In this document: in pieces, positions 8,055 through 62,126 of the stretch | Position numbering within the stretch: position 1 is the first letter of the stretch | Layout: each line of letters begins with the position of its first letter | Made by a program: the position numbers and the translations under genes | Notes under the pieces: generated by a model | Database searches by the model: none | The model's input: only the letters and a program-made list of their open reading frames with translations | Told to the model about the DNA's origin: nothing | Assembly: GCA_965217895.1 (NCBI GenBank) | Contig: CBDCJV010000002.1 | Coordinates: forward strand, 3,936,001 to 4,000,000 | DNA from: Waterburya sp. | GTDB lineage: Bacteria > Cyanobacteriota > Cyanobacteriia > Cyanobacteriales > Xenococcaceae | Direction: 5' to 3' | Length of the DNA stretch: 64,000 nt

Positions 8055-8993
8055 TTATTCTTTAACTAAACGAAAACCAAACAAAATATGGCGAGAGTTA
8101 ATTGGGCGAGTGTGTTCGTAGGCAGCGCGACAAAAACCAGGTAAATCGTCCCAACCGCAACCTTTCATAACAATGCGAGTACCATCATATTTTAACGAAC
8201 TGGTATATTCAAAGACATTTCCCGCCATATCCTCTACGCCATAAACGCTTTTACTTAGAGGAAACTTACCGATTTTACTAGTATAATTCAATCCGCTAGC
8301 TGCTGAATTAGTTGCATTATCTCGCCAATCATTACCCCAGGGAAAATATTGTCCCCCTTCTCCTCTAGCTGCTTTTTCCCATTCTTCATCCGTGGGTAAG
8401 CGGTAAGCTGCATCTGTTGTTTTTCCTTTCCAGTCGGCATAAGCTAGGGCATCTTTAGAGGAAATTAATACTACCGGATGTTGAGCAGTATTTTTGGGAT
8501 ATGTATTATTAGTCCAGAGAAATTCTTTTACTTTGGAGTAAGGGTGAACTAAAAACCCTTGTTTTTGATAATCAGCTTTGCTAATTCCAGGGACTCGATA
8601 ATTGGTAGCTTGAATAAATTCTTGGTATTCTTGGTTAGTAACTAAATTGCGACTAATACAAAAATCTGGAAGTGATGAGATTTGGCGATCGCTTTCACCA
8701 TCAAACCAACCTGTTTTACGTAGTTTCTGTTCTGCTTGCCTAATTTCTGCCTCTGTATCAGCAATTGACTCAGCCGAAATACGATAGGCATAATCTCGTT
8801 CTTGGCGATCGCTACCTAAAACAAAGTCTTCAGCAGCCACAAAAGCAAAAGATTTATCTGATGTGCATTCTTCAGGGGTTATAGCTGCTAACGATCTGGC
8901 TGATTGAAAAACGTTACAGCCGATAATTGCGATCGCTATTATGAATAAAAATATTATTTGTATGGACAACTTATTAAAATTTTTTGTAGGCAT
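8055..8993 (-). CDS. Exported formylglycine-generating enzyme (SUMF1/FGE-sulfatase) fold protein, possible lipoprotein
   Basis: VTNQEYQEF, HPVVLIS, YRLPTDEEWEKAARG, FPWGN, DMAGNVFEY and GFRL motifs. N-terminal hydrophobic stretch ends in IIGC. Start taken at M11 because the longer start overlaps a terminator-like hairpin. Confidence 0.88.
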   Translation of the reverse strand: MPTKNFNKLSIQIIFLFIIAIAIIGCNVFQSARSLAAITPEECTSDKSFAFVAAEDFVLGSDRQERDYAYRISAESIADTEAEIRQAEQKLRKTGWFDGESDRQISSLPDFCISRNLVTNQEYQEFIQATNYRVPGISKADYQKQGFLVHPYSKVKEFLWTNNTYPKNTAQHPVVLISSKDALAYADWKGKTTDAAYRLPTDEEWEKAARGEGGQYFPWGNDWRDNATNSAASGLNYTSKIGKFPLSKSVYGVEDMAGNVFEYTSSLKYDGTRIVMKGCGWDDLPGFCRAAYEHTRPINSRHILFGFRLVKE

Positions 8994-9003
8994 TATATTT
9001 TGT

Positions 9004-9040
9004 AAAAAAAATAAGGCAGCCATAAATAATTATGATTGCC
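9004..9040 (-). terminator. Probable intrinsic terminator/attenuator between NPC peptide gene and FGE-fold gene
   Basis: On the minus strand GGCAATCATA...TATGGCTGCC forms a stem (one mismatch, one G-U) followed by TTATTTTTTTT. Confidence 0.6.
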
Positions 9041-9105: not shown

Positions 9106-9405
9106 TTATTTGCCAGCACAAGGGTTAGCTGAGGCACAGGGATTTTTCTTCCCAGCACAGGGGTTAGCCGAAGCACATGGATTAGCTGCTGCACAAGGGT
9201 TTTTCTCTCCCGCACAAGGATTAGCTGCTGCACAGGGGTTTTTCTCTCCCGCACAAGGATTAGCTGCTGCACAGGGATTACCAGCAACAACACTAAATGA
9301 ATTACTATTATCTGAAGCAGCAATAGCACTATTAGAGAAAAAAGCCGTTCCACCGATAGTTAAAATGGAAGCGGTAGCAATGGTGGCAATATACTTAAGT
9401 TTCAT
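9106..9405 (-). CDS. Secreted low-complexity Cys-rich peptide with nine NPC repeats (99 aa)
   Basis: Sec-type signal MKLKYIATIATASILTIGG...SAIA, then NPCAAA/NPCAGEK/NPCASA/NPCAGKK units. Synonymous third-position variation between repeats supports this frame. Confidence 0.85.
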   Translation of the reverse strand: MKLKYIATIATASILTIGGTAFFSNSAIAASDNSNSFSVVAGNPCAAANPCAGEKNPCAAANPCAGEKNPCAAANPCASANPCAGKKNPCASANPCAGK

Positions 9406-9630
9406 AATTTTGATTGAATTGAAAGAGTGGTTTTGATGGACACCAAATATCAAACTCAACAAAACTGAAATTTGCCTGAGATATTCATTTGTATTAACTA
9501 AGAATTGTCGAATACCCTCTCAGAAAAAAATAATTTGAATTATAGTAATTTCAGTTTTAATAAAGTGAAAGTGAAATACCTTAGCAATCTGTAATTTATT
9601 TACTACTAAGCATTTATCCTTTAAAAAATT

Positions 9631-10290
9631 ATGCCTCAGAACCTTTCAGTCAATACTAGCGATCGCCTATTTGAAGTCAACCCAGACTGCGAAAACTGGA
9701 TTGTTGACGATGATAGTTCCACCGAAGCTTATTATCCTCAAGAAAAAGAGTTGGCCGTAGATCCCTATCGCCTTTTTCGTTTTCTAACCGATTTAGAAGA
9801 TATTTTGCTGGATATACCTAATGATCGCGATCGCCTCAAAGCCATTATGCCTTTGGTGCGACATTTGTTAACCAGTTCTTATTGGTTACAGATGGAATAC
9901 GATCAACCTTCGCCTAAAACTGGCTGGTCTGTCAAAATGCTGTATCGTGAACCAGAATATCCTCTGACAGTACAGATGGTAGCTTGGCAACCAGGAAGCG
10001 TATCTCCAATTCATAATCATGGTGCGTGGGGAATCGTGGCTTTAATAAGTGGCGAAGAAAAAAATCGTTTTTGGAAGCGATCGCCAACTGCTGAACATCC
10101 CGATCGCTTAGAGTTGGTTGGAGAACAAATTTTGCAACCAGGAGAAATTATTAGCTTTATGCCTGATGCTATTCACAGCGTCGAATCCATTGGCAATGAA
10201 CCAACGATCTCATTTAATCTTTACGGTGAGACTAACTACAAACAGCGTTATGAATTTGAGGTCACAAATCATACTGCAACTAACTTTTAA
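9631..10290 (+). CDS. Cupin, cysteine-dioxygenase-like
   Basis: WQPGSVSPIHNHGAWG and IHSVE cupin His motifs; ISFNLYG. Confidence 0.8.
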   Translation: MPQNLSVNTSDRLFEVNPDCENWIVDDDSSTEAYYPQEKELAVDPYRLFRFLTDLEDILLDIPNDRDRLKAIMPLVRHLLTSSYWLQMEYDQPSPKTGWSVKMLYREPEYPLTVQMVAWQPGSVSPIHNHGAWGIVALISGEEKNRFWKRSPTAEHPDRLELVGEQILQPGEIISFMPDAIHSVESIGNEPTISFNLYGETNYKQRYEFEVTNHTATNF

Positions 10291-54447: not shown

Positions 54448-55413
54448 AGACCTCTTGCATGAATCAGGCGATCGCTAAATCCAATCCACAATTATATAAA
54501 CCAGCAATAAGATTAAAGCGCAATCCAAATCGACGACAGTGATTACGATATGGCTGTGACAGAATCCGAAAAATCTTGATTGCACGAATAACGTGTTCTA
54601 CATAGATTCTCTGCCGTGCTAATTCGCGATTGTATTGCTTTTCCATTGAAGTTAACGGCTTTTTTTTTGATTTTTTAAAGGGAGTGTAACTAAGATTATG
54701 AATTTTCTTAATCCCTTGATATCCTTTATCTGCTAGGAGTTCAATTGGACTTAACAGTTTGACTCGACTTCTTTTAAATAATTGAAAGTCATGTTCTTTT
54801 CCTGTCCCATGTGCGGTACAAATGACTTGAAGACTTTGAGTATCAACTATTACCTGAGACTTGAGAGTATGTCTTTTCTTTCTTGATGCAGTCGCTCATG
54901 GGGGAAACCCCCAAGACCGCGCTGCATCGCTTTTTCCACTGTAATAACTTCTTTGTTTTTTTTAGGACGTTCAATCGGACTTTCTCCTACATCTACAATT
55001 ATCACTGACCATTCTCTTTCGGTAGATGAAAGTGCTTTTTTGCCTGGTAAACTAAATTTTCTTGATTTAATCAACTGATCTTCTACTCGATGAACTATTC
55101 TGCATACTGTTGATTCATGAACTCCCCATGACTGTCCTATGTGAAAATAAGTTCGATACTCGCGCCAGTATTGCAGGGCGATGAGCAACTGGTCTTCAGT
55201 ACTTATTTTTGGTTGACCGCCTCGTTGTTTTGACTGGGGTAACTCTTGCTTCAATACTTCCACCATCTGTTCAAACAGCTGTGGTTTAACCCCACACAAA
55301 CGTTTGAACTCTTTTGCTCTCAAATCTTTGATTTGTTCGTAGGTCATGTTTTTATTCGCGATCGCTTATATTACCTACTTTTCTCATTTTCTGAGTATTC
55401 ATGCAAGAGGTCT
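54448..55413 (-). mobile_element. IS5-family (ISL2/IS702-like) insertion sequence, transposase disrupted
   Basis: 17-bp perfect TIRs agacctcttgcatgaat/attcatgcaagaggtct with ATT on both flanks. OrfA (YWREYRTYFHI), A8 frameshift run, OrfB (HDFQLF, ADKGYQG, RIYVEH). Confidence 0.92.
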
Positions 55414-60886: not shown

Positions 60887-61165
60887 ATGTTATCTTCCAC
60901 CGCACACCCTCCTTCTGAAGCCGCACTTTGCTGTTATGTAAATGCTACTGCTCATACCGAGATTGTACGCATTACCAATATTCCCCACTGGTATTTCGAG
61001 CGAGTTGTTTTTCCTGGGCAACGTCTGATTTTTGAAGCTCCAGCCATAGCTAAACTGGAAATTCATACAGGTACGGCTATTAGCTCTATTTTGTCTGAAA
61101 CAATTGATTGTCAAGAATTGCAGCTAACTTCTTCTTTTTCTGCTACTTCAGATTCGCTAGCCTAA
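60887..61165 (+). CDS. DUF1830 family protein
   Basis: CCYVNAT...RITNIPHWYFERVVFPGQRLIFEA motif. Confidence 0.88.
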   Translation: MLSSTAHPPSEAALCCYVNATAHTEIVRITNIPHWYFERVVFPGQRLIFEAPAIAKLEIHTGTAISSILSETIDCQELQLTSSFSATSDSLA

Positions 61166-61222: not shown

Positions 61223-61439
61223 CTTTAGCTAAATAAACCCCGTCTGTCAAACGAAAACCGTAGTTTTTGAATCGGAGATTGAGCTAGTCACAGATTACTC
61301 CGCCCTAAACGGACGAAGCCTGCTGTGACCGTTGGTCAAACAGCAGGATATAATTTCTACTTGCTACTTGCTACTTGCTACTTACGAACAGTCAACTTAA
61401 AAACTCCTGGTTTCAAACTGAATGTGGTTTATATCCAAT

Positions 61440-61997
61440 TTATTCAAATACTTTAGCTCCCTCAAGCACATTCGGCCACTTTTCATTTGCCGAGGAAATA
61501 TGTCCTGGAACGTCTTGCAGCCATTGCTTTTGTACGTCTTTACTGTAATTTAAATAAAGTTTATTATCAACAATTTTCCAAGCTTGGGGATCGATGGAGA
61601 CAACGTTACCTTCCGCTAAACCTTGGGCGCAATAGCCACCATATTGAGGAGCATAAGCTTCAGGATTTTTTTCAAACAATTCTTTGTTTTTCGCACTAGA
61701 AAATCTCCAGACTGCTCCTTGCCATTTGGATTCATATTGACTATCTCCTTGAACAGCTTTTCCCTCTGTGAAATAAGCGACAGGATCGGCACCTCTAATA
61801 GCTAAACCACTAGAAGATTCTGTATAAATTTTAGGTGCAGAATCCGCAGCAGCAGCGCAAGGATTGGCAGCACCAGAGCAGGGATTAACACTAGAACAGG
61901 GATTTGCACTTACTGAATTGAAACTTTGAGGAGTTCCCGCCAATCCCAAGGTAATAATTGATAGAGCAGCAATAGTGGCTAAATATTTAAATTTCAT
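61440..61997 (-). CDS. Secreted YHS-domain protein with three N-terminal NPC repeats
   Basis: AIRGADPVAYF, WRFSS, PEAYAPQYGGYCA and IVDNKLYLNY motifs. N-terminus MKFKYLATIA...NPCSSVNPCSGAANPC. Confidence 0.9.
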   Translation of the reverse strand: MKFKYLATIAALSIITLGLAGTPQSFNSVSANPCSSVNPCSGAANPCAAAADSAPKIYTESSSGLAIRGADPVAYFTEGKAVQGDSQYESKWQGAVWRFSSAKNKELFEKNPEAYAPQYGGYCAQGLAEGNVVSIDPQAWKIVDNKLYLNYSKDVQKQWLQDVPGHISSANEKWPNVLEGAKVFE

Positions 61998-62126
61998 AGG
62001 TACTAATTTTGACTAAAATATTGTTTGTTTGATGATTTAGACATTTACAATATTTTGAATATTTCGTAATTGTCTACTTGATATAGAAGTCTAAAAAAAT
62101 AAGCTTAAAACTACCTTAGAAAAACA

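Follow-up and report, generated by a model that had tools for sequence, protein, structure and literature searches.

A predicted exported YHS-family protein of Waterburya with a portable Asn-Pro-Cys arm, probably co-regulated with a free repeat peptide

YHS (seleno)proteins are collected in the family NF041384, whose motif list includes a GxU selenocysteine motif (PMC13188914, PMC1976440), and the canonical ligand set of copper-binding YHS/TRASH domains is described as one Asp and three Cys (PMC4626032). Bufferins (BufA1/BufA2) are Sec-exported, Cys-rich precursors encoded next to a cytoplasmic non-haem metal protein, the MNIO BufB, and the DUF2063 protein BufC, with possible recognition through the signal peptide (bioRxiv 10.1101/2024.03.18.585515; PMC12452194). 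In Azospira suillum, MrpX, YedY (MsrP) and SigF-NrsF are described as a hypochlorite scavenging system, in which a periplasmic peptide of low complexity, rich in one oxidisable sulfur-containing residue, forms a small stress regulon together with a reductase and an ECF sigma factor (PMC4436054). A 6-fold Asn-Pro-Cys repeat is reported for CdeC of the Clostridioides difficile exosporium, the only other such repeat in the literature searched; CdeC differs in being presented as a self-assembling structural protein of the spore coat (PMC7677010).

Here, we analysed a gene at 61440..61997 (-) of the window, by which we mean the whole stretch of 64,000 nucleotides (G000:C2:3936001-4000000) taken from a genome of 5.29 Mb that is 99.9% complete. 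The ORF translates into 185 amino acids that begin MKFKYLATIAALSIITLG...SFNSVSANPCSSVNPCSGAANPCAAA, and the named homologues of the protein are cyanobacterial (Waterburya, Hyella). A conserved leader, MKxKY[LI]AxxAxxS[IL]xxLG (residues 1-18, 61944..61997 (-); leader HMM and codon comparison), forms part of a Sec signal peptide of about 31 residues, predicted by eye to end in ...SVSA. It is followed by a tag of three Asn-Pro-Cys (NPC) units (residues 32-48, 61854..61904 (-); ORF scan) that is predicted to be disordered; indeed, the AlphaFold model gives pLDDT <50 to both leader and tag, compared with 97-99 for the domain, which is predicted to adopt a YHS/TRASH-like fold. This domain is YHS_seleno_dom NF041384 (residues 65-175, 61473..61805 (-)), and its score of 168.1 bits against a curated cut-off of 70 in an HMM search places the protein in the family. 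Like the family, it carries a GGYC motif that fits GxU (PMC1976440, PMC13188914); it differs by being a Cys form and by an N-terminal leader and NPC arm that lie outside the model.

Cys123 of GGYC (61629..61631 (-)) is invariant in 75 of 75 aligned rows, which confirms the conserved cysteine that the first-pass annotation had ascribed to this subfamily. The same annotation regarded YHS domains as proposed metal-binding modules. Here the family assignment stands and the classical site does not: D71 and C123 are both invariant, C123 is the only cysteine of the domain, and the Asp plus three Cys of the copper site are absent from the 75-row alignment. Given the lack of this ligand set and the fit of C123 to the GxU motif, we consider a redox thiol more likely than a classical metal site. 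The structural comparison added little, as the best fold match (9d2f_A, Z 7.6, rmsd 2.8, 66 aligned residues) is uninformative about function, a structure-sequence search found no solved sequence relative, and the protein atlas returned YHS clusters and unnamed clusters only. As to the surroundings, a convergent DUF1830 gene (60887-61165 (+)) also adjoins YHS in two further genomes (G001, G005), a short run of TTGCTAC heptamers and a repeat-like element occupy 61280-61400 between the two genes, and split transposase-like ORFs lie at 54464-55347 (-).

The window holds a second gene of this kind, a free peptide of 99 amino acids (9106..9405 (-), ATG at 9405) that consists of the leader and nine NPC units. 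Both N-termini show by eye a basic start, a hydrophobic stretch and a cleavage-like site. It had been proposed that the YHS protein reuses the leader and NPC module of this peptide, and the alignment suggested there bears this out, with 46% identity over 61 columns (BLASTP, E 3e-14). Among 39,369 six-frame ORFs of the genome, at least two NPC units occur in these two genes only. The leader alone is far above chance. A 22-residue leader HMM, trained on 115 leaders of YHS homologues with no repeats included, picks exactly three of 15,473 N-termini (E 3e-12, 1e-8 and 1.4e-7; next 0.042), namely YHS, the peptide and a 60-residue lipoprotein outside the window that has the same leader and one NPC (G000:C2:4602955-4603137 (-)); in ungapped BLOSUM comparison with the YHS leader, the other two reach 63 and 55, and the next N-terminus 36. 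Because a repeat-free model singles out these three N-termini, the match is no low-complexity artefact. Over the first 18 codons, YHS and peptide agree in 11 of 17 residues, and 5 of these 11 are encoded by synonymously different codons, which points to an old copy conserved at the protein level.

Is the NPC repeat a portable module beyond this genome? The repeat profile picks up 352 representatives at 50% clustering, and the unit is strict, in that PC is preceded by N (2,488) or D (393) and followed by A (2,627), at a spacing of mostly 5-7. In cyanobacteria, leader and repeat are fused to YHS, thioredoxin, DM13 and a COP23-like domain, and they also occur as free peptide and as lipoprotein; the proteins flanked by the repeat in Proteobacteria and further lineages are SoxA/TsdA-like and P460 cytochromes (Pfam fusions). 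The portability proposed in the first-pass annotation is thereby substantiated, and redox domains of the thiol or haem type prevail among the partners. In scans of YHS, the peptide and 12 other NPC proteins, the repeat was covered by neither Pfam nor NCBIfam models, and the 12 gave no NCBIfam match at all. Scored with the HMM, as a strict regular expression undercounted thioredoxins, the leader scored 15 bits or more in 24 of 25 held-out YHS, 11 of 14 thioredoxin and 3 of 4 DM13 proteins and in none of 66 cytochrome fusions, so that the leader is, on these scores, a cyanobacterial feature. The present genome gave no DM13 match (the control had no match anywhere), and a tagged thioredoxin/CcdA pair is absent from it by ORF scan and family searches; in other cyanobacteria the tagged thioredoxin adjoins CcdA, ECF sigma and RskA genes.

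On YHS orthologues the tag is conserved yet not universal. It was found in 110 of the best 120 whole-protein homologues, a set biased towards tagged proteins, in 14 of the 17 YHS-bearing genomes among 39 of the genus, and on 6 of 13 YHS genes in a draw of 161 cyanobacterial genomes; the absence from orthologues that would have counted against the tag thus applies to part of the family. With the other 7 of these 13 genes untagged, repeat numbers between 0 and 16 in YHS homologues, and DM13 fusions that bring along the upstream DNA of the peptide gene, one could picture a promoter and signal-peptide cassette reused by duplication, with the repeat as a near-neutral linker on YHS and no shared system behind it. 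We regard this as quite unlikely, as the unit is strictly conserved, a candidate regulatory site is shared, adjacency to the same cupin and two-component system recurs across 10 families, and loss of the cysteines tracks loss of the cupin (see below). The number of cysteines shows no bias towards even counts (53 even and 41 odd in free peptides, 69 and 64 in YHS tags). Obligatory disulfide pairing of the tag is therefore not supported, and the counts fit independent thiols.

A degenerate pattern scan returned at least 125 NPC stretches, at least 79 of them with full flanks, which reduced to at least 71 non-redundant loci. Among the 71 loci listed, the neighbours were DUF6969 (29), DUF302 (16), YeeE/YedE (13), ECF sigma (12), DUF3179 (10), CcdA (6), thioredoxin (6), rhodanese (3) and MsrP (3). 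Besides DUF6969, other neighbours in these loci are sulfur and thiol genes (YeeE/YedE, DUF302, DUF3179, CcdA, thioredoxin, rhodanese, MsrP). An unannotated secreted protein with an ELTQVPCQFLE...CPLN motif also adjoins NPC genes (L077:4640-5227; L020, L028, L031); it occurs in Proteobacteria (8 of 71 loci, among the matches listed) and cyanobacteria and has no Pfam or NCBIfam match.

Upstream of YHS, a motif search located a candidate regulator site, CTAAG-N6-TTAAG with an 11-bp period (62104..62121 (-)), and a similar direct repeat, CTCAG-N6-TTCAG, precedes the peptide gene (9465..9482 (-)). De novo searches run separately on YHS promoters and on non-YHS NPC promoters returned the direct repeat YT(C/A)A(G/T) with an 11-bp period, and the information content is 3.87 at period 11 as compared with 2.62-2.75 at periods 8-10 and 12-14. 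A matrix trained on YHS promoters placed the peptide promoter of this genome in the top 0.04% of 2,648, compared with never better than 4.5% for 20 random training sets. A symmetric model was also built on 17 YHS promoters, none of them syntenic and none from this genome. It ranked the genome's own VTT, YHS, kinase and peptide genes 1, 2, 3 and 6 of 4,989; kinase and VTT had already been picked out by gene neighbourhood before the promoter scan. The reverse test was weaker. Without same-genus YHS promoters in the training set, the own YHS site ranked 166-307 of 4,989, and it fell at the 29th percentile with the first matrix; a model built from tagged YHS alone ranked the peptide 332, and a search of all YHS promoters failed to recover the motif from one of three seeds. 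The lipoprotein (599) and the FGE-like gene (3,525) are unremarkable. Taken together, the promoter sequences suggest that the YHS and peptide genes are probably co-regulated; of the co-regulation that the first-pass annotation named as a check, the common repeat speaks in favour, the reverse search less so. The likely regulators are single best orthologues in this genome, a histidine kinase (C2:2361542-2362960) and an OmpR-type regulator (C2:3086775-3087446); in G084, an untagged YHS gene lies directly ahead of the same kinase and regulator as the apparent head of an operon.

The direct repeat resembles the CopR box, given as TTCAT-N4-5-TTCAT (PMC4182526), and this likeness brings in a metallothionein-like reading, in which the unmodified tag would act as a periplasmic sponge for Cu(I), Ag(I), Hg(II) or As(III), controlled by a two-component system that responds to metals. 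High cysteine density, a rank of 16-24 for the CopR-like gene in the direct-repeat models, mercuric-reductase-like/VTT and cupredoxin-like neighbours among the loci listed, and a weak, sub-threshold BufA2 match would all be in line with it. However, the linked OmpR-type regulator is not the CopR-like protein (C2:1851085), P-type ATPase-like and MerR-like genes were each seen by eye in about 4 loci among the matches listed, and the YHS domain lacks canonical metal ligands; we thus hold such a sponge to be improbable. The CopR-like gene itself (G000:C2:1851085-1852349) has a TTCAT-N6-TTCAT box, is divergent from a cysteine-rich four-helix-bundle-like gene and probably represents a separate copper system. 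Other observations from the promoter scans concern the strongest direct repeat outside NPC genes, which precedes a VTT/DedA-type membrane gene (G000:C2:964908-965654 (-)) adjacent to a secreted superoxide dismutase look-alike (by eye; 963868-964662 (-)), and a DUF1830-like paralogue (C2:261590-261835) that ranks 9. An ECF-type promoter, TAAATCC-N16-TCGT, was not found upstream of the three leader genes of this genome; it stands out clearly before the thioredoxin and sigma genes of other cyanobacteria (L172-L174, L188, L189).

The cupin is encoded near the peptide gene (9631..10290 (+)). It is a divergent thiol-dioxygenase-like protein with invariant His128, His130, His182 and Asn196-x-Tyr198, and the three histidines, invariant in 39 rows, would form a three-His facial triad. 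Its matches are mercaptosuccinate dioxygenase (8vni) and 3-mercaptopropionate dioxygenases (3uss, 4wvz, 6xb9), with E values of 1e-13 to 1e-10; it shares their three-His triad and differs by an Asn in place of the His of the Ser-His-Tyr motif. In the draw of 161 cyanobacteria, the repeat profile matched 22 genomes, of which 18 were confirmed as carrying NPC genes, 17 via translation and one (G193) via coordinates that mirror those of G175; the four dropped were G115, with a leader but without Cys, G136, which lacks a repeat ORF, G128 and G043. The cupin family occurs in 43 of the 161 genomes and in 17 of the 18 confirmed ones. In 12 of these 18, spread over 10 families, no more than about 1 kb separates it from the NPC gene, which makes it the tightest partner of NPC genes in cyanobacteria. 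These gene-order counts are descriptive, as related genomes are not independent. The slot beside the cupin is taken by a free peptide or lipoprotein, a thioredoxin or a tagged YHS, the latter in four of the six genomes of the draw that have one (G133, G090, G044, G131). Hence the proposal that YHS belongs to the same system as the peptide, encoded in trans, is retained through cupin adjacency and the shared upstream repeat, and its link to the FGE gene is not. A histidine kinase and OmpR-type regulator follow the cupin in six genomes, and ECF sigma, RskA, CcdA, DUF4079 and VTT genes recur around the cupin and NPC loci. The four closest relatives of the present genome, one clade on the tree, lack both peptide and YHS. 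Elsewhere, a second cupin subfamily (L236-L241) lies directly upstream of a gene that by eye looks like SelO/YdiU, and in L184 and L185 a cupin paralogue adjoins a nitrogenase-associated ArsC-family gene (TIGR01616) and NMT1-type ABC transporter genes.

Does the cupin act on the tag? An MNIO-independent, RiPP-like reading would have the cytoplasmic Fe-3His cupin, or the unrelated His-rich DUF6969 in Proteobacteria, oxidatively modify the NPC cysteines before export and so produce a polyvalent metal-binding or redox arm like that of the MNIO bufferins. The [N/D]-P-C-A repeat would then be a widespread portable substrate tag on peptides, lipoproteins, thioredoxins, YHS homologues and cytochromes. 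One argument for it comes from the leader lipoprotein, which was detected in 34 of the 39 genomes that represent the genus. Among the 25 that are at least 95% complete, all seven without an NPC-linked cupin have no cysteine in the lipoprotein repeat (units DPA, DPG, EPD), and one or more cysteines remain in 17 of the 18 that have the cupin. The exception, G007, has a cupin from another lineage, closer to those of other families (74%) than to that of the present genome (58%), and G197 retains a cupin remnant of 34 residues. Untagged or truncated YHS in G084, G055 and G086 likewise coincides with the absence of a cupin, and the specific conservation of the leader across YHS, thioredoxin and DM13 fusions also speaks for this reading. 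Yet an rpoB tree reduces the association to three concordant independent pairs, none opposite and one uninformative (sign test p=0.25; left out were G203, whose frame was not recovered, and G003 and G200 as short matches), and the same contrast for the FGE-like gene gives three concordant and three uninformative pairs. Cysteines without a detected cupin were seen in five genomes below 90% completeness and in G203 (91%), outside this count, and a DPC repeat without a cupin at a contig edge in G191 is a possible counter-example. Moreover, leader and repeat rhythm are intact in the Cys-less lipoproteins of cupin-less relatives, which weakens the idea of the leader as a dock for the cupin, and the leader is missing in all 66 cytochrome fusions. 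Cupin paralogues with the same invariant residues lie away from NPC genes, near sulfonate-type ABC transporters or a SelO-like gene, and the nearest solved relatives of the cupin use small thiols.

In the pattern scan, the cupin was found in one cyanobacterial locus only, among the 71 loci listed, and the place of the tightest neighbour is taken by DUF6969, usually just downstream and often at 6-113 bp. Both lineages thus have a predicted cytoplasmic His-rich protein as closest partner, a further point for modification, set against the 42 of 71 loci among the matches listed, many of them short contigs, where DUF6969 is missing. DUF6969 has invariant H74, H76, H85, H87 and H113 and no profile similarity to the cupin; its model (L061:5120-5851) reaches pLDDT 92, with a best fold match of Z 3.4, which does not by itself imply a new fold, and Foldseek gave no match at E 0.001. 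Overall, we rate modification of the tag by cupin or DUF6969, and with it the substrate-tag role, as possible and less probable than the free-thiol reading given below. With the bufferins, the locus has in common a Cys-rich precursor, here predicted by eye to be Sec-exported, an adjoining gene for a predicted cytoplasmic non-haem metal protein and possible signal-peptide recognition. It differs in that MNIO (PF05114) gave no match in the 99.9% complete genome (the Caulobacter control was positive), BufA2 reaches 19.3 bits against a cut-off of 60, and the [N/D]PCA repeat is predicted to be disordered and is fused to enzymes; the main text of PMC12452194 does not contain the terms 'PCA', 'YHS', 'P460' or 'cyanobacteri'.

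Formylglycine-generating enzyme (FGE) systems use a CxPxR motif in the substrate and a catalytic CxxxxC in the enzyme. An FGE-sulfatase-fold gene follows the peptide gene in the genus (8055..9023 (-); Cys298, H-x-R-P, HILxGFR); it encodes a predicted lipoprotein of a distinct subfamily and would be accessory rather than universal. Conversion of tag cysteines by this protein, for example to formylglycine, had been implied by the first-pass annotation, and close homologues in 5 of 71 loci of other lineages, among the matches listed, would agree with it. The orthologue is nevertheless present in only 2 of 161 cyanobacteria, as against 18 with an NPC gene, and in 22 of 39 genomes of the genus. G019, G020 and G023 have lost peptide and YHS and still carry it next to the cupin, and G204, G016 and G017 keep their cysteines without it; sequence comparison shows no canonical CxxxxC, and PC-x-P-x-R occurs in just 8 of 341 repeat proteins. 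We therefore dropped the FGE gene as tag modifier and consider it very unlikely in this role. Members of the FGE-fold subfamily were also seen fused to or adjoining a multihaem c554-like cytochrome in NPC loci (L101:1274-4147, L037:6101-8301).

Based on the mostly thiol and haem redox partners, the lack of a pairing bias and the occurrence of the cupin family also away from NPC genes, we favour, at somewhat under an even chance, NPC arms that are unmodified thiols and capture oxidants or reactive sulfur. The YHS gene would accordingly encode a likely exported redox protein of its family with a portable, predicted-disordered arm, and this arm would likely capture oxidants or reactive sulfur in the periplasm for a stress regulon that appears to be common with the repeat peptide. 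We speculate that an OmpR-type two-component system switches on peptide, YHS and kinase genes through the 11-bp direct repeat, a predicted operator, and we infer their co-induction from it. After Sec export, each NPC cysteine could serve independently as a sacrificial or carrier thiol, and the attached centre, be it the single Cys/Sec of YHS, a thioredoxin CxxC fed by CcdA or a Cys-ligated haem, could reduce or process the load. The cytoplasmic cupin may handle the thiol side inside the cell or assist the sensor. Two observations speak against free thiols: the [N/D]-P-C-A unit is strict, and cysteines are lost in the absence of the cupin. Enzymatic modification explains both at least equally well.

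This scheme would be like the MrpX/MsrP pair with cysteine replacing methionine. The low-complexity peptide rich in an oxidisable sulfur residue, its periplasmic localisation and the small stress regulon (the latter two as we infer them here), and the reductase and ECF sigma factor are shared with that system (PMC4436054); in contrast, the arm is often fused to a redox domain, and the cyanobacterial loci contain a cupin and an OmpR-type system. Nor is the peptide a Met-rich substrate recycled by MsrP, as the mature form contains no Met and an MsrP-like gene occurs in 3 of 71 loci among the matches listed.

The YHS domain is a member of a known family, and the tagged system is best filed with the cysteine- and methionine-rich stress systems of the envelope. 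A stress system with an NPC arm is apparently undescribed so far: the literature searched on the repeat, DUF6969, cyanobacterial YHS and cupin-modified peptides, in main texts largely outside subscription journals, gave no description of the module, and the text of PMC10989515 that was searched names no thiol dioxygenase that acts on a RiPP precursor. The repeat marks hundreds of redox proteins predicted to be exported in Cyanobacteria, Proteobacteria and other lineages, and it joins four orphan families, the YHS selenoprotein family, the cyanobacterial cupin, DUF6969 and the FGE-fold lipoprotein, in one module with a predicted operator. Free-thiol arms would make it the cysteine equivalent of MrpX; modification by cupin or DUF6969 would open a new way of making modified exported proteins and could provide a tag for engineering.
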